This document shows positions 7,073 through 34,712 of a DNA stretch of 35,813 bases, piece by piece (position 1 is the stretch's first letter; each line of letters opens with the position of its first letter). Source of the stretch: an uncultured bacterium. GTDB lineage: Bacteria > Bacteroidota > Bacteroidia > Bacteroidales > CAIWKO01. The translations under genes and the position numbers were made by a program. The stretch is taken from NCBI GenBank assembly GCA_903858655.1, contig CAIOJS010000489.1, positions 1 to 35,813 of the forward strand, given 5' to 3'. The notes beneath the pieces were generated by a model. That model was not told the origin of the DNA. It made no database searches and saw nothing but the letters and a program-made list of their open reading frames with translations.

Positions 7073-7969
7073 CTACATTTTTCTCATCCTAATATCCAAC
7101 TTACCTATCTCACCATGAATCACTTTAATATCGGTTCTAACTTCCATAAAATACATTTTATGTTCGGCGGTTAGTGTCCAGTTGCCTGATTCCAAACTAT
7201 GAAATTGTGTAAAACCTTTTTTAGTGCTAAATTTTTCTATCGTTCGCACACCATTGGTCAGCGTAACCTTAATCTTCCGCAAGGGAACGTTAACCTCCCA
7301 ATCTTTATAAGAAACTATAAGTGAAAGTTTGCGTCTGCCCAAAGGCTTGCCCACTTTTATATATTCTTCCCATGCAGGTGTCAAATCGGGCAAATACGAA
7401 TGAATCAAGTTGCTCATATAGCCTTTCATCACATCCAATTTGTTGAGTAAATCCGGAATCAGATCGGTGCCTTTGGTTTTTTTCAGCTTTTTCATCTTCA
7501 CTGGCGTACCTCTGATAGACTTAAACGCTGCAATGCTAGCTTCCATTTCGCCAATATCTCCCAAGCTCAAATTATCTAAGACATTCAAATTTTTTTTCAT
7601 TATCTCTTTAATCACCGATGCTCGTGATTCTGCCTCAATATCCCTTGCCCGTATGATATAAGACAAAGATTTTTTCAAACTTTCTTCTAAAATTGATTCA
7701 TGCATCATATTAGCTTTCACAACACTGCGCTCAGCATATTTTATTATGCATTGCCCCATCTGCAGCTTCAATTTCTTTTTTGTAGGTGTAGAAGACGTCA
7801 CATCCACGGCTTGATTATTAAGAGCATCTTCCACTTGCGCTATCAATTGGTTATACGTTGCCATATAAGGTCCAAACTCTTCGATGTTTGACAATTCAGA
7901 TGCATATTTTGCATTAAAATCCTTTCCACGTAATATGGCATGCCAACGATTCTTTTGTGGTTTGTTCAT
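7073..7969 (-). CDS. Hypothetical protein with a helical N-terminal two-thirds and a C-terminal beta-sandwich (carboxypeptidase-regulatory-like by eye)
   Basis: 298-aa ORF with no signal peptide. The C-terminal segment LSLIVSYKDWEVNVPLRKIKVTLTNGVRTIEKFSTKKGFTQFHSLESGNWTLTAEHKMY resembles CarboxypepD_reg-type folds. No family recognised with confidence. Confidence 0.6.
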   Translation of the reverse strand: MNKPQKNRWHAILRGKDFNAKYASELSNIEEFGPYMATYNQLIAQVEDALNNQAVDVTSSTPTKKKLKLQMGQCIIKYAERSVVKANMMHESILEESLKKSLSYIIRARDIEAESRASVIKEIMKKNLNVLDNLSLGDIGEMEASIAAFKSIRGTPVKMKKLKKTKGTDLIPDLLNKLDVMKGYMSNLIHSYLPDLTPAWEEYIKVGKPLGRRKLSLIVSYKDWEVNVPLRKIKVTLTNGVRTIEKFSTKKGFTQFHSLESGNWTLTAEHKMYFMEVRTDIKVIHGEIGKLDIRMRKM

Positions 7970-8062
7970 GAGGTGTAAGTTTATGGAATGTTAGTTCATT
8001 TAAGTTGTTTAAGATTGATGTTTATCTAGTAATTTATTTCTACAAATTATATGCCAAACTTC

Positions 8063-8335
8063 ACTAAACATGACACAATATTCATAAATTTAGAAACAGA
8101 GAAGATAACATCTGAAACAGTGGCTCTAACATTAGAATCAGAATTCATAAAATATAATACAGTACCCTCAACATAATGATCATAAACAATAACATTTAAA
8201 ACAGTATCTTTAACTTTAGGAATAGAGTCAATAACATAAAAGGCAGTATCCATAACGTCAGAACCATAGTTAATGACACAAGAATCAGAATACATAACAT
8301 TAGGAACTGAGTCCATAACATGTAAAACGATGCTC
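8063..8335. repeat. Array 1: 13 diverged 21-bp direct repeats in perfect register (plus-strand consensus about ATAACATnAGAAnCAGnnTCC)
   Basis: Units start at 8063, 8084, 8105, 8126, 8147, 8168, 8189, 8210, 8231, 8252, 8273, 8294 and 8315, each exactly 21 nt after the last. TAACAT (unit positions 2-7) and CAG (positions 14-16) are conserved, while the remaining positions vary. Confidence 0.8.
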
Positions 8336-8650
8336 AAAAGCTTATAAACACTGAACATTTTGCAACTGACGGCATAAAAAAAATAGAAATCGAAGTTTAA
8401 AATATGAATCACAGTAAATGAAATATTGTCATCCTACTTCATTATAACACTGTCTTCACTCAAAAAGCATCTGTCAAAACGCTTAAGTATTCCGTGACAG
8501 TGCTTCAAAACAAGCAAGGTGTTGAACAGAATCTCATGTCACAACAAAAGATCATCAACAGATAATAGATTTCTGTTTCAGCCAATAGTCTTTCTTAAAT
8601 CGTGTTTAAATTAATGGCTTTGCTATTTAATCAACTTCTCTTCAGCATAC

Positions 8651-8690
8651 TAAAAAAGGCTTGTTTTGTAAATAACAGACAAGCCTTTTT
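8651..8690 (-). terminator. Rho-independent terminator of the giant T9SS gene (structure is bidirectional)
   Basis: AGGCTTGT (8657-8664) pairs with ACAAGCCT (8679-8686). An A6 run precedes it on the plus strand (T6 after the hairpin on the minus strand) and T4 follows on the plus strand. It lies 56 nt downstream of the stop at 8746. Confidence 0.7.
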
Positions 8691-8745
8691 CAATATCACT
8701 CCTCCAAACAAACAATATAGCAATTCAAATTAATCAACCAATTCC

Positions 8746-11700
8746 TCAATTCTTGACAATCTTATCCGAATAGGTATGTATTTTATCATCAATATCAACA
8801 CCGCTAAATCTGAAATAGTAAATGCCCGAATTTACATCAACACTCTCCCACTTAACTGTATGCGCACCGGCATCCTTCGGGCAATTGTCAATATGCCCCA
8901 TATTTTTTCCTTCAGATGTAAATATGTCAATATAAATCTCTGTCATATTTCTACTTAAAGTGTAATAAAAACCAACGTCTTTTGTAAATGGATTGGGACT
9001 TGCATACACATTGTCAATCCAAGGTCCTTCCAAAATAATTACCTTAGTTGTTTTGCTGTTGTTGTTGGCACACACCTCGCAAATAGAATCGAGCGAGGTA
9101 ATCTTTGAATAAATTGTCAAGGTAAAGGCATTTTCTGGAATGGTAAAAGGTACTGTATAAACTACCGTTTCCTGAGCCAGCAATTGCGCATAGAATTTTT
9201 CACCGATTTTAACGGAGTCGTTCCCCATAATAGCATACACTTGCAGCCGCACATTGTTCACAGCCATGCCTGTGTTCTGAGCATACACTGTTACATTAAT
9301 CTTTTCGCCCTTCAGCGCTTCACTTTTATCAGAAGTTAGATTCGTCAGATTTACATCCGAAGCAGGAAAAATCAATAGCGTGGTGTCGGGGTATGAATAA
9401 TATTCGGTAGTAAACTGACCATTATATGAGATGTCAATTTGTGAAATTAAATCAAGGAAGTTGACGATAGAATCGCAAATCTTTTCATCCAATTTGTAAT
9501 GGAGATACAAATCCTTGCGCTGCCCGGGCGTATATAATCCCATTAAAGCAGTTGTGGTAGGCTTCGAATATGTGCAGTTTGAAGGCAAACTATCGGTTAA
9601 AACGTAGTATGCCGGACCATTTTTTATGCCCAATGTGGTGTTCAAAGCTATATCACTGCCAATATTATAGGACGAAATCAAAGCCACAATATCCAGAGAG
9701 GTGTTGGGTGCAAAAATTATCGTATCATTATCGCCCACAGGAATGCCGTTGATACTAAAGATTTTCTTGGTTAAATAGATTCTTGGACCTATGGGAACCA
9801 CACTCACAACTCCATCACTTGTAAAGTTCGAAGCGTTGTCGTAATTATAATTCAATTGTTCGCTGCTAGTAATGGGCAAATTTTCGCCCACTGGAGCATT
9901 AGAGGAATTGACTTCTCCCTGCTCAAGAATATAGATTTTTGAAGTGTCTTTAGAAGGAAAATGATGGAATGAACTCATATCAATCACTTCCTTGTTACTT
10001 CCTTGGTTATAGTTGGTAGGCAGGGTAGCCGTCATAGTAGGAAAGTCAGTATAATTTACATCATTTGCCGACCATTTTACGTTTTCCAAGCCTTTAAATT
10101 CCGAAGTGGTGTTTACGGTGATATTTGTTAAATCTCCATCGCCAATCACCAATTTCTGAAATGCAGCGATATTTCCAGTTGGAGTTTTGGGCGTGATGCT
10201 AAACTGCAACTGAGGCACATTATAACTAACAGCACCATGATTTGCACCTGTGTAATGAACTTTGTTGCCTGTAATAGTAAAAGGTATGCTATAAATTCCC
10301 GGAGGCAAACTTTCATCTATACTTATAAGAAACATGAAATAAGCCCTGCGCGTAGGTTGCAACAGATTCAGGGTGTCGCCCATTTTCACCAGAACCTCTC
10401 CATCGGGTTGATTAAAGCGCCATCCGGTGGTGAACGATCCGATTTGGTCGCCCGAATGTAAAACGGCTCCCGTATTTGGATCAGCAACCGCAGGAACCAA
10501 AGGACGTGGATACGCCACATATTTCATAACAACATGGGTGCTGCCCAATGCAGCTGGAATTGTAGGCGTTATTTTGGTATCTAACCAGTTATCATCCGTG
10601 CCATTAACCACCGTTATCATGGCTTCAACAAAGGTGCCACTTACGGTTTGAGGGAAGCCTGCAAGATCAGGATTACCGGGGTCAGCTAATGGAACTAACG
10701 TTAGTGTCTTATGGTCGAAAGCAGGATCAAAAATGGCGGGCATTGTATAAGAAGGCTCTATCAAACTGCAAGGGTCTTTGCCACCTGCATAAGTAGAAAT
10801 TGATACATCTCCATAGCCATAGCAAACATGGTAGGGATCGAAATCGCCATCGAATTCATGGGGTTCATTAAGGTCTTCAACTTTGTGTTTCAGATAGCAG
10901 GTGTCAATCCCAATTTTAACCACCGAAGGGCTTGGTGTAGATGTAATTGAAAGATCAACACCTTGCGCAAATGCCGATAATGTATGCGAGAAAATCACCC
11001 AGGGCGACCCACCGAAAATCTCTTCCACCACCAGCCAACCGCCTTTGCTGATATCCACAGGACCTTCCTTGCCTTTGCCTTCGTAAATGGCATTGATGTT
11101 GAAATGAACTTTACCAAGATCGTCAAACCAATCGCTGCCGTAAGTATTATCTGCACCGGCACACCAGCCGGAATCCACCTGTCCTGCCATGCCTGCATCT
11201 AAATGAGAAAATACATGAGGCGAGCCTGCCGGATAATTTTCTCCATTGCCTATCATGTAAGCATCATGCAAATATCCTGTGGAAGAGTGGAACCTATCGC
11301 CCGAATCATCAATCCAATCATCAATGCCATCACCATTTTTATCGCATAAAGCAGGAGGAATAAGCAATTGCGGTATATGTATATGATAGTTGAAATCATC
11401 TTCCCAAATGGAGATAGAATCGGAAGTATGCGGATTGGAAATCCAGCGCTCGAAGTTATGCCCATCCACCTGCACGACGGAATTGATATCATAACTGCCA
11501 TCTATCAGTTTAGGAAGCGTGATTTTGTAATTAGAAAACCCTTTGGGGATGTCATAAACCATATATCCAAAAACACCATCTCCAAGCGATTCAACACCTT
11601 CTGCCGCCAGCGAAGGATCGTTGAAATCAACATCATGTCCTGCATTTCTAATCCAGTAATAAGAATATTCGGTAGAAGCATCCACATTAAAAGTGATGTA

Positions 11701-18591: not shown

Positions 18592-18612
18592 AAGCTCCCT
18601 TGCGGAAGCTTT
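18592..18612. terminator. Possible bidirectional hairpin terminator between convergent truB and the DUF2795 gene
   Basis: AAGCTCC-CTTGC-GGAAGCTT is an imperfect hairpin immediately after the truB stop, flanked by A and T residues. Confidence 0.4.
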
Positions 18613-18635
18613 AATAATTGTTATTACTCGGTTTT

Positions 18636-18857
18636 TTAATACTCATCTTCGTGAAAGAAGAAATCCTCCTTGGTAGGATAATCGGGCCAAATATCTTCAA
18701 TGCTTTCGTACACCTCGCCTTCATCTTCAATTTCTCGTAAATTTTCTAATACTTCGGCAGGCAAAGCTGACCTCATAGCATAGTCAAGTAGTTCATCTTT
18801 TGTTGCAGGCCAAGGGGCGTCTTCTAATTTTGAAGCCAATTCTAGAGTCCAGTACAT
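18636..18857 (-). CDS. DUF2795-family small acidic protein
   Basis: 73 aa. The segment WPATKDELLDYAMRSALPAEVLENLREI matches the DUF2795 pattern (FPAtKdeLi.yA...gap..vl..L). Confidence 0.65.
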   Translation of the reverse strand: MYWTLELASKLEDAPWPATKDELLDYAMRSALPAEVLENLREIEDEGEVYESIEDIWPDYPTKEDFFFHEDEY

Positions 18858-18880
18858 ACTTCTCGGTTTTAAATTTTTTG

Positions 18881-18888
18881 CAAAAATA
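18881..18888 (-). promoter_or_regulatory. -7 promoter box (TATTTTTG on the minus strand) for the DUF2795 gene
   Basis: Plus strand reads CAAAAATA, a perfect TAnnTTTG on the minus strand, 23 nt upstream of the ATG at 18857. Confidence 0.5.
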
Positions 18889-19046
18889 TATCTATTTTAT
18901 ACACAAAGTCAAGTTAAAGATTCATTCTTGTGTTAAAAAATGTTAAATCGTTTTCTTTTGTGCTCAACTTATGTGTTTTAATCGTCATTATTAGCATAAC
19001 GCAAATGTTATATTATATATTGAGTGATTATTGTTTTTTTTTTAAA

Positions 19047-19604
19047 TTAAATTTTCCAGAGTGTTTCCGCGACGCCTAAATCTTTGGCAACATAACGAGC
19101 TAGCACAAAAAAATAATCCGAAAGACGGTTGATATATTTTAATACTAGTTTTTGTTTTTCGTTAAACAAATCAAGTTTCACCATGGCTCGTTCTGCCCTA
19201 CGACACACTGTGCGAGCAATATGGCAATAGGAAACCACAGGATGTCCGCCCGGCAAAATGAAATGTTTCAGTTCGGGCATGCGTTCGTTCATGCGGTCAA
19301 TTTCGGTCTCCAATAGTAGAATGTTTTCTTCGCTTAGCGATGGCAAATTGATGAGTGATTTTTCGGAATCGGCAGCCAGCAAAGATTCCGCGATAAAAAT
19401 ATGCGACTGAATGGCTAGCAAGGTGTGCTTTTGTTCCATCTCAATAGAGAAATCGCGGATAAGTCCGATAAAAGAATTTAATTCGTCGAGGGTGCCGTAG
19501 GCTTCGATACGCAAATCGGACTTTTCTACACGGCTTCCACCAATGAGGGAAGTGTTGCCGCTGTCTCCTTTTTTGGTATAGATTTTTTGATTATCGTAAT
19601 TCAT
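19047..19604 (-). CDS. PduO-type ATP:cob(I)alamin adenosyltransferase
   Basis: 185 aa. The N-terminal IYTKKGDSGNTSLIGGSRVEKSDLRIEAYGTLDELNSFIG is the hallmark of the PduO/MMAB family. Confidence 0.88.
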   Translation of the reverse strand: MNYDNQKIYTKKGDSGNTSLIGGSRVEKSDLRIEAYGTLDELNSFIGLIRDFSIEMEQKHTLLAIQSHIFIAESLLAADSEKSLINLPSLSEENILLLETEIDRMNERMPELKHFILPGGHPVVSYCHIARTVCRRAERAMVKLDLFNEKQKLVLKYINRLSDYFFVLARYVAKDLGVAETLWKI

Positions 19605-19608
19605 TTTT

Positions 19609-19692
19609 CAGTTAAATTAGTTCGGAGATCGGGGTTCAGAGTTTCTAGTTCAGGGTTCAGAGTTTCTAGTTTGGAGTTCAGAGTTCGGAGTT
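19609..19692. repeat. Array 2: about 3.5 copies of a 21-bp direct repeat (CAGGGTTCAGAGTTTCTAGTT) spanning the ABC ATPase stop codon and the intergenic gap
   Basis: Full units lie at 19630-19650, 19651-19671 and 19672-19692, with a half-matching unit at 19609-19629. Units 1 and 2 differ at one base. Confidence 0.8.
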
Positions 19693-20426
19693 TGGGATAC
19701 CAATTCTGCGTAAAATTTCATCTTGCGGATGTTTTCGTTTAGTTCGTCGGTGTCGACAACGCCATCTTTGAGGCGTATGATACGATGGGCGTGGCGTGCA
19801 ATGTCTTCTTCGTGAGTCACTAAGATAATAGTGTTACCTTGTTCGTGGATTTCTTCGAATAGCCCCATGATTTCGATGGATGTTTTCGAGTCGAGGTTAC
19901 CTGTGGGTTCATCTGCCAAAATAATAGAGGGTTTGTTGACCAAAGCTCGAGCAATAGCCACCCTTTGGCGTTGCCCACCCGAAAGTTCGTTCGGTTTGTG
20001 GGTGATACGGTCGCTGAGTTGCACCTGTTCCAATACTTCTTTGGCACGTAGGATGCGTTTGTTGTTGTTGAATCCTGCATAAATCAAGGGTAAGGCAACA
20101 TTGTCGAGCGCCGTGGAACGAGGTAGGAGATTGAAGGTTTGGAAAACAAAACCGATTTCTTTGTTGCGGATTTCGGCGAGTTGGTTGTCGTTGAGTTTGC
20201 TCACATCTTGCTGATTTAGGATGTAGGTGCCCGAGGTGGGCGTATCCAAACATCCAATAATATTCATCAAGGTGGATTTGCCCGAACCCGAAGGTCCCAT
20301 CAGGGCAACATACTCGTTCTTATATATCTTCAACGATATGCTTTGCAAAGCTTTGACAATATAAGTGCCCACTTTGTAATGCTTGGTAGTGTTGGTCAGA
20401 CTGATTATTTCGTTTTTCATGTTCAT
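19650..20426 (-). CDS. ABC transporter ATP-binding protein (MacB/LolD-like) with a repeat-derived C-terminal tail
   Basis: Walker [10 protein letters not shown], signature [15 protein letters not shown], Walker [12 protein letters not shown], and [20 protein letters not shown] typical of the MacB/LolD clade. The last ~14 codons ([13 protein letters not shown]) are encoded by the 21-bp repeats. Confidence 0.9.
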
Positions 20427-21192: not shown

Positions 21193-21327
21193 ATGATTAT
21201 TGCATTAGCTTCGACGGAATTTCGCAAAATGTTTTTTCTTTCTTCAGATAAGAAAAAATGATGTTGAAATATGTCAAAATGTCATGCGAAAATCAAGCCT
21301 TTTGCTTGCGACTGACAAAAGTGCTCC

Positions 21328-21537
21328 TTTTTTGTACCGCAACGACTCTTTTTTGTACCGCAACGATCCTTTTGACCGCCGCAACGATCCTTTTGACCAC
21401 CGCAACATTCCCTTCAACCACCGCATCATTCCTTTCGACCATCGCATCATTCCTTTTGAGTATCGCAATGTTCCTTTTGAGTACCGCAATGTTCCTTTTG
21501 AGTATCGCAACAACTCTTTCGACCACCGCAACGTTCC
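21328..21537. repeat. Array 3: 10 copies of a 21-bp direct repeat (consensus TTTTGACCACCGCAACGTTCC) in perfect register
   Basis: Units start at 21328, 21349, 21370, 21391, 21412, 21433, 21454, 21475, 21496 and 21517. CGCA (unit positions 11-14) and C-TTT (positions 21, 1-3) are invariant or nearly so. Variation clusters at positions 4-10 and 15-20. Confidence 0.9.
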
Positions 21538-21732
21538 TTTACGCTATATGGAGCATATTTGCAGTTTTCGCACTTACTTTTCGCTGCTGTTCCAAAATTC
21601 TTCTTCTTTCATCAAAAAGAAAACATAGAAATACATGATGATATATGCCTAATATTATTCAATTTACGTTACTGAAAACATCAGGAAAATATTTTTCTTA
21701 AAAAATTTGTGCATCACAATAAAAAAAATTTA

Positions 21733-21740
21733 TAACTTTG
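21733..21740 (+). promoter_or_regulatory. -7 promoter box TAACTTTG (with TTTG at 21706-21709 as a candidate -33) for the trypsin-fold/TPR gene
   Basis: Perfect TAnnTTTG 14 nt upstream of ATG 21755. A TTTG lies 23 nt upstream of the box. Confidence 0.5.
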
Positions 21741-21754
21741 AAAAAAATTTCGGT

Positions 21755-22786
21755 ATGAAAAGATTTGTCATTCTTATTTTAATTGTTGTCAGCTTTTACT
21801 CCAAGGGGTTTTCTCAGGATAAAAGTGAGCTTTTGCAGAAAATCACACCCTCATTAGCCATTGTGAAAAGCGATGTTGTTATGGGCTATGGTTTTTTCGT
21901 TGGAAATAACACGCTTATGACCACCGTCAGTACGATTGGCAAACATCAAAAAGGCACGGTGCTGTTGGCAAACGGCAAGGTGGCTAACCTCATTGGATTT
22001 GTTGCCACCGACGACGAAAATGATTTGGTGTTGTTGAAAATTGATAACGACAGCGCGGAGCCTGCGACTATCGCATCGTATATGCCGATGCCCAATCAGA
22101 GCGTTTTTCTGCTGACAAGAAACGGCGAGGAGAAGCCCGAACTGATTGCTGCAAAATTAAATGCCTTCAAGGATTTGGGCAACATAAAACTGATTACCGT
22201 GAAAGCCAATGCGCCTTTGAAAACTGCCGGTTTTCCCGTTTTGGATTCCGTTGGCAATGTGTTGGGAATGACCGTAAGTTCCCCCATTGAAGGGTCTGTT
22301 ATGACTTTTGCAACGCCCGCTGAAAAGATTCTTCATCTTATAAAAAATAGTGGCGAATTGAAAGGATTGGAGTCGTTGACGTCTATTTTCGACCTCATCA
22401 GCAAACAAGCGGCAGTGAACGAAGAAAAAGCAAGAGCCTCGAAAGAGTTTCGCGAACAAGGTTTTCTGCGCTTAAGTAATAAAGAATATTCTGCTGCCAT
22501 CGAAAAATTCAGCATGGTGATACGCATCAACCCTTCGGATGCCGATGCTTATGCGTTCAGGGGTCAGGCGAAGTGTCTGCAATTGCGTTTCAAAGAGGCG
22601 TTGGAAGATTTCAACAAAGCCTTGGAGCTGCAGCCCGAATTTGCAGAAGTTTACGACATGCGCGGCGTATGTAAAGCCGAATTGGGCGACAAAGTGGGCG
22701 CCTGCGAAGATTGGACACTGTCTTATGAAAAAGGCTACGACCCTGCCTTCAAACTTATCGAGAAATTTTGTCCCCTCGAATATTAA
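21755..22786 (+). CDS. Secreted trypsin-fold (HtrA/S1C-like) pseudo-protease fused to three TPR repeats
   Basis: I place the start at ATG 21755 (MKRFVILILIVVSFYSKGFSQ is a signal peptide), not the track's TTG 21707. GYGFFVGNNTLMTTVSTI, ENDLVLLKID and KTAGFPVLDSVGNVLGM align by eye to the His, Asp and Ser boxes of S1C proteases. The C-terminus has TPR units (AYAFRGQAKCLQLRFKEALEDFNKALELQPEFAEVY...). Confidence 0.6.
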   Translation: MKRFVILILIVVSFYSKGFSQDKSELLQKITPSLAIVKSDVVMGYGFFVGNNTLMTTVSTIGKHQKGTVLLANGKVANLIGFVATDDENDLVLLKIDNDSAEPATIASYMPMPNQSVFLLTRNGEEKPELIAAKLNAFKDLGNIKLITVKANAPLKTAGFPVLDSVGNVLGMTVSSPIEGSVMTFATPAEKILHLIKNSGELKGLESLTSIFDLISKQAAVNEEKARASKEFREQGFLRLSNKEYSAAIEKFSMVIRINPSDADAYAFRGQAKCLQLRFKEALEDFNKALELQPEFAEVYDMRGVCKAELGDKVGACEDWTLSYEKGYDPAFKLIEKFCPLEY

Positions 22787-28320: not shown

Positions 28321-28580
28321 ATAATTTCGGATAATCAAGCAGGATTTCGGATAATCAAGCAGAATATCAGATATTCAAGCAGGATTTCGGAAATTCAAGC
28401 AGAATATCGGAAATTCAAGCTGAATATCGAAAATCCAAGCTGAATATCGGACAATTAAGCAGAATATCGGATAATCAAACAGAATATCGGACAATCAAGT
28501 AGAATATCGGAAATTCAAGCAGAATATCGGATAATCTAGCAGAATATCAGAAATCCAAGCAGAATGTCGGAAAACCAAGC
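28321..28580 (+). repeat. Array 4: 13 gap-free copies of a 20-bp direct repeat (consensus AGAATATCGGAWAWTCAAGC)
   Basis: Units tile 28321-28580 exactly every 20 nt. Positions 4, 5, 7, 8, 11, 13 and 18 are invariant, and most variation is at positions 6, 12, 14 and 15. No ORF of 60 aa or more crosses it in any frame. Confidence 0.95.
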
Positions 28581-28707
28581 AGAGCTTAGCAACTTTAACT
28601 AAATGATGATCCAATGGAGTTACGGATTACACAAAGAATTCAAATGAAATGCATAATAACACTTTAGTTAAAAATAAATATTAATTTAATCTTAAAAACT
28701 TAAAAAT

Positions 28708-29382
28708 ATGTTTTATTCTGTTGCATTACTTGATTTTGTTAAATTATCAATCGTACTATTAATTGAAAGAGGCTATTTTGTAGCTTCATGTTTAACATCT
28801 AACCCAACGTTTCCTGCGCCTTTTGTGTTGGCAGCGCAAATAACCACCTTGACGGATACTTTGAAAACCGCTTGGCTGGCTTATGAAGCGAATCCAGGAA
28901 CTGACGAAAAAGAAGCTCTTGATTTAGCCCATGACGCTCTGATAGAGGCTTTGCTATCCAATGCCGGTTACGTGACAGGCAAATCGGCTGGAGACCCTAT
29001 TAAAATAAAATCAGGTGGCTACACTCCTTCAAAGGAAAGACACATGAATGAGAAACCCCCTTACGACGCCAAACCTGGTTCAAACCCGGGACGCGTCAAA
29101 CTATATTATCAAAAAGGTGAGCAGGATGTGACCGTTATTTGGTTAGAATTTCATGGAGCCGAAGCCCCCGCAAGTATTTCGGATTATGCTCCAAGCGCAG
29201 GCACGACTTACGATAGTATCGAATTAACGGGATATACTTCTGGTGAATGGATTAATTTTGTTGTTCGCCCATCGCAGTCAAAGGCGATGGCAAATTCCAT
29301 TGGACTCCACCCTTGCTTGTGTTGGTACCATAAGCTTAGGGCATTGAAAGCAAAAAGGACAAGCTTGGACAAGCGGGAATGA
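28708..29382 (+). CDS. Hypothetical protein with an N-terminal helical region and a C-terminal Fn3/Ig-like beta-sandwich (uncharacterised Bacteroidota family, by eye)
   Basis: 224 aa. LTSNPTFPAPFVLAAQITTLTDTLKTAW and ...AGYVTGKSAGDPIKIKSGGYTPSK resemble a recurrent uncharacterised family. The C-terminal GRVKLYYQKGEQDVTVIWLEF...YTSGEWINFVVRP looks Fn3-like. Confidence 0.55.
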   Translation: MFYSVALLDFVKLSIVLLIERGYFVASCLTSNPTFPAPFVLAAQITTLTDTLKTAWLAYEANPGTDEKEALDLAHDALIEALLSNAGYVTGKSAGDPIKIKSGGYTPSKERHMNEKPPYDAKPGSNPGRVKLYYQKGEQDVTVIWLEFHGAEAPASISDYAPSAGTTYDSIELTGYTSGEWINFVVRPSQSKAMANSIGLHPCLCWYHKLRALKAKRTSLDKRE

Positions 29383-33503: not shown

Positions 33504-34712
33504 TTATAAAAATTTTCTGATAATCAATTCTTCCAACTTATTCAGTGCATCCGGTTTTTCGTTCCAATTGTGTTTTTCTTTTAAATCTTCGAAAAAGATG
33601 TTGGCTTCTTCAATCCCCACAAAACTGTTGAGCATATCAATGGTTTTATTATATTCCTGAAGATCTCCTTTAAAAAGTTCGTTGATAAATAAAAACTTAT
33701 CGTTGATACCTATTGCGTTTTTTAGGTTGGTAATAGTTGCTTTCCCCGCTTTGCTCGCCAAAGTGTTATCAGGTTTGTCATGCACCATTTTTTCGTGCAT
33801 CAACTTAGGGGCTTCTTTAAACTTATCTGCCACAATTTCTTTTTCAGTTAGTGAAAACAAATCAATCGCTTGTTGTTTTCCAGTTTTCACAGGAGTAGGA
33901 ACTTCCTTGGGTATCTCATTCACGACTTTCTGTTCAGGAACATCTACTTTTGTAATGATAAGTTCATTCACAGGAGTATCCACTTTTGTAATAATTGTGT
34001 CTAAAGGAAATTTCGGTTCTTCAACCACGACAGGAGGTTTTGTTTCCTCCTTAATTGGCTCCTCTGTTTCTTCTAAAAGTTCACTCACAGGAGTATCAAC
34101 TTTGGTAATAATAGTTTCTACTGGCAGTTTTGGCTCTTCAACAATTATAGGAGGTAGAGTTTCTTCCACAATGAGGTTCACGGTTTCTTCAATAAGTTCG
34201 CTTAAAGGAGCATCAACTTTGGTAATAAAGGTTTCTATCGGCAGTTTTGGTTCTTCAACAATCATGGGAGGAAAAGTTTCCTCAACAACAGGCTCCAAAG
34301 TTTCTTCTATAGGTAAAAAACTATCAACGGAAGTATCCGGCACTTCTTGTACCTCCAAAACAACATCGTCAGCTATTATTTCTGAAATTTTTTCTATTGG
34401 CTCTAAATCTATGGAAATAACAGTATTATCAGGATTTTCAATCCTAATTTCATCCTTGTTTTCTTGTGGTATTGAAAAATCTTGTTTCTCAATTTCAAAA
34501 TTTACTGCTATATTTGCATCAATACTATTTTTATGATAGCTGTTTAATTTGTTTAACTCATAAAAGAGTTCGTAAAAGTGTCGGATATTTGCCATAACGA
34601 TATCCAATTCAATTTGAGGAATTCTTTTTTCGTGTTCATCAATGATAGCAAACTGTTCATTTAGAACCTCTAAAATATTTTTTATTTCTTCTTTGATATT
34701 TTTTGTTTCCAT
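33504..34712 (-). CDS. Conserved Bacteroidota protein of unknown function with acidic Pro-rich tandem repeats
   Basis: 402 aa. Three ~39-aa repeats (EETxPPxxVEEPKLPxETxITKVDxPxSELxEE) are flanked by a helical N-terminus and a C-terminal GINDKFLFINELFKGDLQEYNKTI domain that I recall from uncharacterised Bacteroidota proteins. Stop lies 1 nt from the M28 start. Confidence 0.6.
   Translation of the reverse strand: METKNIKEEIKNILEVLNEQFAIIDEHEKRIPQIELDIVMANIRHFYELFYELNKLNSYHKNSIDANIAVNFEIEKQDFSIPQENKDEIRIENPDNTVISIDLEPIEKISEIIADDVVLEVQEVPDTSVDSFLPIEETLEPVVEETFPPMIVEEPKLPIETFITKVDAPLSELIEETVNLIVEETLPPIIVEEPKLPVETIITKVDTPVSELLEETEEPIKEETKPPVVVEEPKFPLDTIITKVDTPVNELIITKVDVPEQKVVNEIPKEVPTPVKTGKQQAIDLFSLTEKEIVADKFKEAPKLMHEKMVHDKPDNTLASKAGKATITNLKNAIGINDKFLFINELFKGDLQEYNKTIDMLNSFVGIEEANIFFEDLKEKHNWNEKPDALNKLEELIIRKFL
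33969..34320 (-). repeat. Three tandem 117-bp coding repeats inside gene 33504-34712
   Basis: CACAGGAGTATC at 33969, CACAGGAGTATC at 34086 and TAAAGGAGCATC at 34203 are each 117 nt apart. A partial extra ITKVD-coding copy lies near 33937. Confidence 0.8.

Follow-up and report, generated by a model that had tools for sequence, protein, structure and literature searches.

What is the role of a run of short tandem repeats in the apparent gap between two bacterial genes, and is such a gap really non-coding? The question is raised by a 35,813-nt stretch of DNA from an uncultured bacterium of the Bacteroidales (contig CAIOJS010000489.1 of assembly GCA_903858655.1; "the window" below is this whole stretch), in which 21-nt units follow one another upstream of a gene for a protein of 298 amino acids (aa). 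A first-pass annotation, made by a model from the sequence alone, took the units for a non-coding array whose conserved bases line up on one face of B-DNA and dismissed the open reading frame (ORF) that overlaps them. We think it somewhat better than an even chance (about 0.55) that the array is part of a translated leader cistron, or of a low-complexity small protein, which was built from in-frame minisatellite repeats and is co-transcribed with the gene. The three elements on which the argument turns are:

8042-8356, minus strand: tandem array of 15 units of exactly 21 nt (13 of them clear, 8063-8335), with a 42-nt super-period
8047-8358, minus strand: upstream ORF (ORF1), 103 codons from ATG 8358 to TAA 8049-8047, T at codon position 3 = 0.62
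7073-7969, minus strand: downstream gene, 298 aa, member of a rare Bacteroidota family

The array and its register

When the window is stacked in 21-nt steps from 8063, 13 indel-free units are obtained at 8063-8335, just as the first-pass annotation had described them, and with one decayed unit at each end the array grows to 15 units (8042-8356). The plus-strand consensus of the 13 units is ATAACATAAGAAACAGAATCC, their mean pairwise identity is 0.56, and information peaks at positions 2-7 (TAACAT) and 14-16 (CAG), the two blocks to which conservation had been assigned. The distances given earlier were also correct: 94 nt separate the start of the last unit from the ATG at 7969, and the upstream gene has its hairpin at 8647-8696. 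At lag 21 the autocorrelation is 0.53, compared with 0.31 in shuffled sequence (z = 8), and the tandem array exceeds chance. At lags 42 and 84 it is higher than at lag 21 (z = 10.6), which indicates that the units alternate in a 42-nt super-period, a feature absent from the first-pass annotation. Tandem Repeats Finder missed the array at its default settings and a separate repeat search of the window recovered it. Outside the array the unit motif is not enriched in the window (14 matches against 9 expected, six of the 14 being inside the array).

The minus strand is the sense strand of the gene at 7073-7969. On it the consensus is GGACTCTGTTCCTAATGTTAT and one unit makes seven codons of the ORF at 8047-8412, with the in-frame reading D-S-V-P-N-V-M; heptads in the window are DSVPNVM, YSDSCVI, NYGSDVM, DTAFYVI and others. 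Alternative starts of ORF1 are GTG 8412, ATG 8316 and ATG 8295, and an 82-aa version of its product (P0011; sources NCBI and ENA) is on record for the window's contig.

Conservation of the array in relatives

The family of the 298-aa protein was followed through seven lineages, all of them uncultured freshwater Bacteroidota: that of the window and the six below, for which identity to the window protein, number of units and type of unit are given (MAG, metagenome-assembled genome).

L001: 77% identity; 10 units; unit type as in the window
L004: 46% identity; 11 units, 94% alike; GCTTGCCGTAAACTTTGAGTC
L002: 37% identity; 16 units; DSVTHLF type
L007: 32% identity, paralog in the MAG of L002; about 16 units; YTNYxAA type
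L005/L006: 33% identity; 12 or 13 units; YSGYFDC type
L009 (= L014): 33% identity, paralog in the MAG of L013; two abutting arrays in one register; QSNNMSI and EYGFTSI types

All seven lineages carry a sense-strand array with a period of exactly 21 nt upstream of the gene, ending 72-189 nt before its ATG, and none of the roughly 97 units has any other length. The window and L001 are exactly three units apart (13 and 10) while the array ends and flanks align base for base, the last clear unit lying 93 nt from the ATG in both. L005 and L006 are identical over 3119 nt but for one 21-nt unit. Of 20 inter-lineage pairs aligned as DNA, 14 are in phase (p = 9e-4), which indicates that the arrays are homologous and not independent inventions; the array of L004 has no detectable sequence relation to the units of other lineages. 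A likeness of heptads between lineages of the form [DE]-S-[VL] was also considered, and the DNA register test backs homology for the window and L001 with L002 only. The orthologous and paralogous loci thus keep the array with its 21-nt register unbroken, and neither a loss of the array nor an indel that shifts the register, two of the outcomes by which the first-pass annotation proposed to be judged, was found. Two paralogous cassettes (repeat ORF plus family gene) with different repeat units were seen in each of two genomes, L002 and L007 in MAG ELA062 and L013 and L014 in MAG KTt_bin-0590.

When the window is compared with L001, differences in the gene amount to 12.4%, 10.1% and 29.9% at codon positions 1, 2 and 3 and to 36% at 4-fold sites; the values are 14% for the array units that can be aligned and 24-25% for the flanks, and the 261 nt concerned contain no indel. 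In that pair the array region therefore evolves more slowly than neutral. These rates, together with an array that keeps its place, strand and period in all known members of the family, even at 32% protein identity and in each of the two paralogs of two genomes, are difficult to reconcile with a functionless minisatellite in a dispensable or decaying small ORF, whose 21-nt period would simply be inherited and homogenised by unequal exchange. The pyrimidine-ending periodicity described below would also decay without selection and yet is present in six lineages. We consider this explanation distinctly unlikely, although intergenic arrays of 7, 8, 10/11, 14, 17, 20 and 21 nt abound in these genomes, copy number is polymorphic between strains, divergence of the ORF region in deep pairs (0.35-0.43) is about that of the genes' third positions (0.33-0.48), and the frame has a nonsense codon in L007, no start in L004 and no amino-acid constraint.

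Helical phasing or multiples of three

The proposal of helical phasing started from the closeness of 21 to 2 x 10.5 and from the two blocks, whose centres are indeed about 10.5 nt apart; the recurring TGTT cores, however, have spacings of 9 and 12 nt. Autocorrelation is 0.33 and 0.37 at lags 9 and 12 and is not raised at lags 10 and 11 (0.31 and 0.27), and it is raised across multiples of 3 in general (0.334 against 0.291). The power of AA/TT at 10.5 bp within the array is 0.22, i.e. nil, with no curvature signal and no phasing of A-tracts, only five four-base A-tracts being present. All sub-periods found in the window and its relatives (9/12, 42 and 63 nt) are multiples of 3, and the two-block pattern did not recur in another lineage, L002 being the one examined. 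It had also been said that conservation lacks a 3-nt periodicity, and this stands, as identity within the array is 0.555, 0.573 and 0.549 by codon position. In the suggested comparison of 3-nt with 10.5-nt periodicity the 10.5-nt signal is nil, conservation is flat by codon position, and base composition is strongly 3-periodic. A non-coding array on one face of the helix is mostly unsupported; nothing but the number 21 favours one-face phasing. Two more specific candidates were rejected: Pho-box-like 11-nt half-sites, as the spacing is 9/12 and not 10/11, and a GANTC methylation-type core common to the unit consensuses, which occurs in only 2 of the 13 window units.

A wider form of the non-coding explanation needs no single face: the units could be recognised, in the DNA or in the leader RNA, by a protein whose copies bind cooperatively at fixed distances and adjust the expression of the downstream gene, with the open frame and its pyrimidine-ending codons (NNY) as by-products of a pyrimidine-rich strand. 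A period of exactly two helical turns in about 97 units, without even a 3-nt indel, speaks for such sites, as does conservation at the level of nucleotides without codon structure and with "synonymous" sites slower than neutral. Unit sequences are specific to lineages, in the way that iterons and centromeres vary with their binding proteins, and no indel distinguishes the window from L001 in the 93 nt that separate the last clear unit from the ATG. L004 keeps 11 units despite having no ATG and no NNY bias, and the window's genome holds another array, similarly upstream of a gene, whose 20-nt period cannot be that of an in-frame repeat. On the other hand, the sub-structure in multiples of 3 and the nil result for 10.5-bp sub-periodicity and curvature do not suit this explanation, and neither does a motif that is not enriched elsewhere in the window. 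No consistent structure of the sense RNA and no Rfam match were found. We hold it to be possible but on balance improbable, also on account of the reading frame and the promoter position, which are considered next.

Composition and codon usage of ORF1

In the window's ORF1 the frequencies of T at codon positions 1, 2 and 3 are 0.31, 0.44 and 0.62. The value at position 3 is 0.53-0.65 in six of the seven lineages, compared with 0.25-0.39 in adjacent genes and 0.14-0.42 in all genes of the window, and in the same six lineages 71-83% of third positions are pyrimidines. A 21-nt repeat can by itself give a period-3 harmonic, and for this reason the non-repeat N- and C-terminal flanks of ORF1 were tested in L002, L005, L007 and L009. 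The flanks keep the phase of ORF1, with T at position 3 of 0.47-0.77 and period-3 P values of 0.08, 0.03, 0.009, 0.04, 0.41 and 0.0015 (combined by Fisher's method, p = 2.6e-5). The signal is missing in nine of ten intergenic controls and present in T or A for most chunks of genes. Continuation of both the 3-nt periodicity and the open frame through flanks that have no repeated binding site is a further point against protein-binding units.

The enrichment of T in ORF1 is also seen at 4-fold sites (0.57 against 0.32), and T:C ratios in two-fold boxes equal those of genes. The codon-usage score of the window's ORF1 is 0.23-0.24; genes score 0.277 +/- 0.10 and wrong frames do not exceed 0.18, and an open frame with the score of ORF1 is reached by composition-matched synthetic arrays at p = 0.012. 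Across lineages the encoded composition is rich in S, N, F and Y and poor in K, E and Q. An enrichment of NAU codons dependent on queuosine was considered (NAY 26% against 17%), but the enrichment extends to T-ending codons of every box and is therefore unspecific. ORF1 has 89-192 codons in the different lineages. The sense frame is free of stops through the array in six of the seven, five of which have an in-frame ATG start and one (L004) a TTG. In the flanks no stop occurs among 369 codons of frame 0, while the other sense frames have 45 in 734 (p = 1e-8); 12.5 flank stops are expected when NNY composition is kept.

Position of the promoter and layout of the cassette

The sigma-A -7 box of Bacteroidota is TAnnTTTG, and median 5' untranslated regions (UTRs) in the phylum are 24-32 nt (PMC9723704). 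Exactly one sense-strand TAnnTTTG is present per locus in L002, L004, L005, L007 and L009, 72-305 nt upstream of the array, and no exact match lies between array and gene in these lineages. As the sole canonical box is upstream of the array in five of seven lineages, we infer that the array is transcribed and does not lie upstream of the promoter, which also argues against units that act as operators. From the -7 box to the ATG of ORF1 there are 41-104 nt in L002, L005, L007 and L009, and the short 5' UTRs of the phylum fit ORF1 and do not fit a leader of 384-718 nt. The distance from the -7 box to the ATG of the family gene is 673-718 nt in L002, L006, L007 and L009 despite differing repeat numbers and units. 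The stop of ORF1 is 43-77 nt before the gene's ATG in all lineages, including the window (48 nt in L007). Such an operon-like layout, gene-like codon usage and a coding-type composition that runs into the non-repeat flanks of relatives speak against the earlier dismissal of the overlapping ORF as non-coding. Around ORF1 of the window the following features are recognised:

8393-8408, minus strand: block TTCATATTTTAAACTT, kept between the window and L001, containing TATTTTAA
8647-8696, minus strand: inverted repeat with 18-nt arms, 89% complementary, 3' of the stop of the 1853-aa upstream gene
7970-8046, minus strand: A-rich 77-nt spacer from the ORF1 stop to the gene's ATG, containing CATCAAT (8014-8020)

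Judged from its sequence, TATTTTAA is a degenerate candidate for a -7 box, some 40 nt ahead of the ORF1 ATG, and the inverted repeat is likely a terminator that isolates the cassette from upstream transcription. No intrinsic terminator was found between array and gene, and scans for sigma-70 promoters and terminators gave nothing above chance. The best matches to Rfam covariance models are far below gathering scores, the structure of the array RNA is inconsistent across lineages and strands (z from -2.5 to +2.3), and a rut-like excess of C over G is present in some lineages only. ORF1 shows no enrichment of one regulatory codon. Inverted repeats flanking the array were rejected as a feature, their pairings being mutually incompatible and not kept in L001. 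A box resembling (AT)ATCAAT (ATATCAAT-like) was read from the sequences 26-55 nt before the ATG of the family gene in the window (8014-8020), L001, L002, L006, L007 and L009.

Constraint on the peptide

A number of observations weigh against a translated ORF1, and most of them concern its peptide. Purifying selection on the protein was not found. Of the 18 codons that differ between the window and L001, 16 have changed non-synonymously, change is slowest at third positions (4/47, compared with 89/298 in the gene; p = 0.0013), and within arrays there is no relaxation of third positions. Mismatches between lineages are flat by codon position in ORF1 (0.398, 0.377 and 0.335), whereas the same procedure gives 0.314, 0.242 and 0.513 for the downstream genes, with 20 of 20 pairs in phase. 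In fixed alignments the synonymous share of differing codons is 12% for frame 0 of ORF1 and 41% for genes, and mean BLOSUM62 scores are -0.05 and +1.84, respectively, frame 1 of ORF1 being equal to frame 0. Searches of 1.84 billion representatives and of 5.8 billion clusters gave no relatives of the product (one extra match, P0009, is an unrelated 1920-aa repeat protein and was discarded); it has no Pfam or NCBIfam match and no confident fold, the AlphaFold2 (AF2) model having a mean confidence (pLDDT) of 34. Known leader peptides have 10-30 residues, against some 100-190 here. As to the frame and its promoter, L007 has an in-frame TAG in the middle of the array, in the homologous frame, where adjoining units have TCG; L004 has no in-frame ATG and no NNY bias; and the excess of open frame reaches only about p = 0.06 when NNY composition and the stop-defined ends of ORFs are allowed for. 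Neither an exact -7 box nor non-repeat flanks are present in the window and L001, so that the case for the window rests partly on homology.

The same substitution patterns bear on the possibility that the product of ORF1 has a true function of its own, as a repeat protein or as the precursor of a peptide, and that its hypervariable repeats are subject to diversifying selection; a modified peptide with several cores or a binding partner of the downstream protein would be examples. Substitutions are not milder in frame 0 than in frame 1, the N-terminal region shows no conservation, no fold, relatives or signal peptide were seen, no known modifying enzyme or transporter is nearby, and an equal layout precedes an unrelated gene. 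This makes such a function still less probable than any explanation above, in spite of a two-gene cassette without other conserved neighbour, repeats that are alike inside a locus and unlike between loci, a consistently S/N/F/Y-rich and K/E/Q-poor composition and a non-synonymous rate above the synonymous one between the window and L001. Similar C-terminal motifs, with some synonymous differences, can also be counted for it (...SFSYSN..INY in L005, ...SFTNSN..INY in L007 and ...FSFTN in L002). The O-glycosylation sequon of Bacteroidota is D-(S/T)-(A/I/L/V/M/T). A role for it was rejected, since it is found in some heptads of the window and L001 and not in L004, L005, L007 and L009, and there is no signal peptide.

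The downstream gene

The family of the 298-aa protein is small: of 5.8 billion clusters, a single-sequence search detected four and a profile search seven. The protein has no meaningful Pfam or NCBIfam match. Its AF2 model (pLDDT 65) has a helical N-terminal domain and a transthyretin/CnaB-like C-terminal beta-sandwich. A DNA-binding fold was sought and none was seen, Foldseek matching only the C-terminal CnaB/transthyretin-like beta-sandwich; this would speak to some extent against a protein that binds the units, though the helical N-terminal domain is unmatched. A scan of species-representative genomes with the single family protein gave no match, a profile of the closer members recovers only two known MAGs, and exact look-up of the window's own protein finds no record. 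Apart from the repeat ORF and the family gene, no other conserved neighbour belongs to the cassette.

Other arrays in the window and in relatives

A second 21-nt array is located at 21336-21540 of the window, with about 10 units and a 63-nt super-period (ACCGCAACGTTCCTTTTGACC), inside the plus-strand ORF 21284-21628. This ORF has 114 aa with heptads PFDHRNI/PFEYRNV, its third positions are 79% pyrimidine, and it stops 79 nt before an unrelated gene for a TPR and trypsin-like peptidase protein (21707-22786), a layout like that at ORF1. Exact look-up of its product finds no record. The second array before an unrelated gene might hint at a general device of the lineage.

The 20-nt array mentioned above is at 28323-28583, with 13 copies of the unit AATATCGGAAAATCAAGCAG that are 83% alike, 125 nt upstream of the gene at 28708-29382. 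It has no ORF and no period-3 signal, so that this genome also contains an array of comparable size that is truly non-coding. At 19619-19696 about 10 copies of an AGTTCAG heptamer, also scored as a 21-nt period, lie between and partly overlap the minus-strand ORFs 19047-19604 and 19650-20426, and three 117-nt repeat copies at 33960-34307 are an ordinary coding repeat in the minus-strand ORF 33504-34712. The region 18592-19046 has no listed ORF of at least 100 aa, yet it has a period-3 T signal (P = 0.012) and may hold an unannotated small gene. Among relatives, L007 has an 8-nt (24-nt) array at 1146-1218, AGCACATC x 9, which ends 46 nt before the -7 box of the cassette, and L014 has one at 1741-1809, TTTAGCTG x 8.6, about 480 nt before that box. 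L001 has extra intergenic arrays at 10984-11221, 9209-9386 and 7555-7631; in this lineage a 17-nt array begins right where the family gene stops, 10/11-nt arrays that contain GTCAT precede the cassette, and another gene has a 14-nt array 30 nt ahead of it, and GC-rich palindromic repeat elements (TCCCGACAT and CGGGACAGG) are scattered near these arrays.

Comparison with known systems

With the in-frame coding variable-number tandem repeats (VNTRs) of bacteria, among them those of size-variable repeat proteins, the array shares a 3n period, whole-unit changes between strains, homogenisation within a locus, divergence between loci and an open frame. It differs from them in that ORF1 is tiny, is without relatives, constraint on its amino acids or a conserved domain outside the repeats, and is the first cistron directly before a conserved gene in all family members. 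Leader peptides and upstream ORFs (tnaC, mgtL, his/trp) are located between a promoter and the gene they regulate, their peptide is largely irrelevant outside key codons, and it is the status of translation that matters. ORF1 resembles them in its position between promoter and gene but has 89-192 codons instead of 10-30, no intrinsic terminator or antiterminator was found, and no single regulatory codon is enriched; we know of no such leaders in Bacteroidota. Iterons, parC-type centromeres and phased operator arrays consist of at least 10 direct repeats of about 20 bp beside a gene, with lineage-specific sequence and strict spacing. The array is like them in repeat count, in size of about 20 bp, in lineage-specific units and in its whole-helical-turn spacing of exactly 21 nt, and unlike them in lying downstream of a canonical box and inside an ORF with codon-type periodicity, without 10.5-bp sub-structure and beside a gene in whose protein no DNA-binding fold was seen.

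Intergenic direct repeats of the heptamer TAACTGA, for which a post-transcriptional role was suggested, precede start codons in Beggiatoaceae, in Cyanobacteria and in part of the Bacteroidetes (PMC4679880). They too are sense-oriented, tandem, placed between promoter and start codon and variable in copy number; they have, however, 7 nt and a fixed sequence and are mostly a few nt from the start, whereas the units described here have 21 nt and no heptamer sub-repeat, are lineage-specific and lie 72-189 nt from the start inside an ORF. In Haemophilus influenzae the number of simple sequence repeats (SSRs) in a transcribed 5' UTR is reported to alter expression post-transcriptionally in phase variation (PMC12721329). 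The SSRs are short and act on/off, while 21-nt units change length without change of frame or helical phase, and for this reason graded tuning is likelier than switching. In its working the array would be most like in-frame coding VNTRs and translated leader ORFs, from which it departs in the size of the leader and in the missing purifying selection.

Conclusions

We can now return to the reading proposed at the outset. The array would be the repeat core of ORF1, co-transcribed with the 298-aa gene, each unit supplying seven codons. What is kept from lineage to lineage is the layout: a sigma-A type -7 box, an ATG 41-104 nt further on, an open, purine-poor frame of 89-192 codons in which 21-nt repeats make up the greater part, its stop codon, 43-77 nt of A-rich spacer and the gene. 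The array with its conservation and periodicities, the substitution patterns and this layout are observed, and the start of transcription, translation and any coupling are inferred. The register would be held by gain and loss of whole units through slippage or unequal exchange and also because shifts of the ORF1 frame would create stops, and B-DNA phasing would not be its cause. The peptide is nearly free to drift; the open frame, the 3n period and the pyrimidine-ending codons persist. Bacteroidota are a phylum without Shine-Dalgarno sites, and ribosomes that move along ORF1 may shield the long leader and bring up or uncover the region in which the downstream gene starts; in that case the number of repeats would be a heritable determinant of length and strength. 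In a close variant the product of ORF1 would be an S/N/F/Y-rich low-complexity protein, important by its composition only. We prefer the leader-cistron version because no constraint on the peptide was found and because a second 21-nt array stands before an unrelated gene.

It is more speculative, and in our opinion doubtful, that a new class of long leader cistrons is seen here in the Shine-Dalgarno-less Bacteroidota, in which purine-poor NNY frames of in-frame 21-nt units, with an irrelevant peptide, would carry expression through a leader of 400-700 nt by their translation, and whole-unit changes would act as a heritable rheostat of expression. The finding would be an ordinary one if the array were a mere drifting minisatellite in a dispensable ORF. 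As a warning for annotation, gene callers describe the locus as a hypothetical protein and a reader of the sequence describes it as a non-coding repeat, and neither label fits the evidence. If the leader-cistron reading is true, selection keeps a frame, a repeat period and a composition by codon position over a very long time while the peptide drifts, a combination which would not be expected for ordinary genes or ordinary operators, and which would suggest that downstream genes are controlled through translation in a phylum that initiates without Shine-Dalgarno sites.

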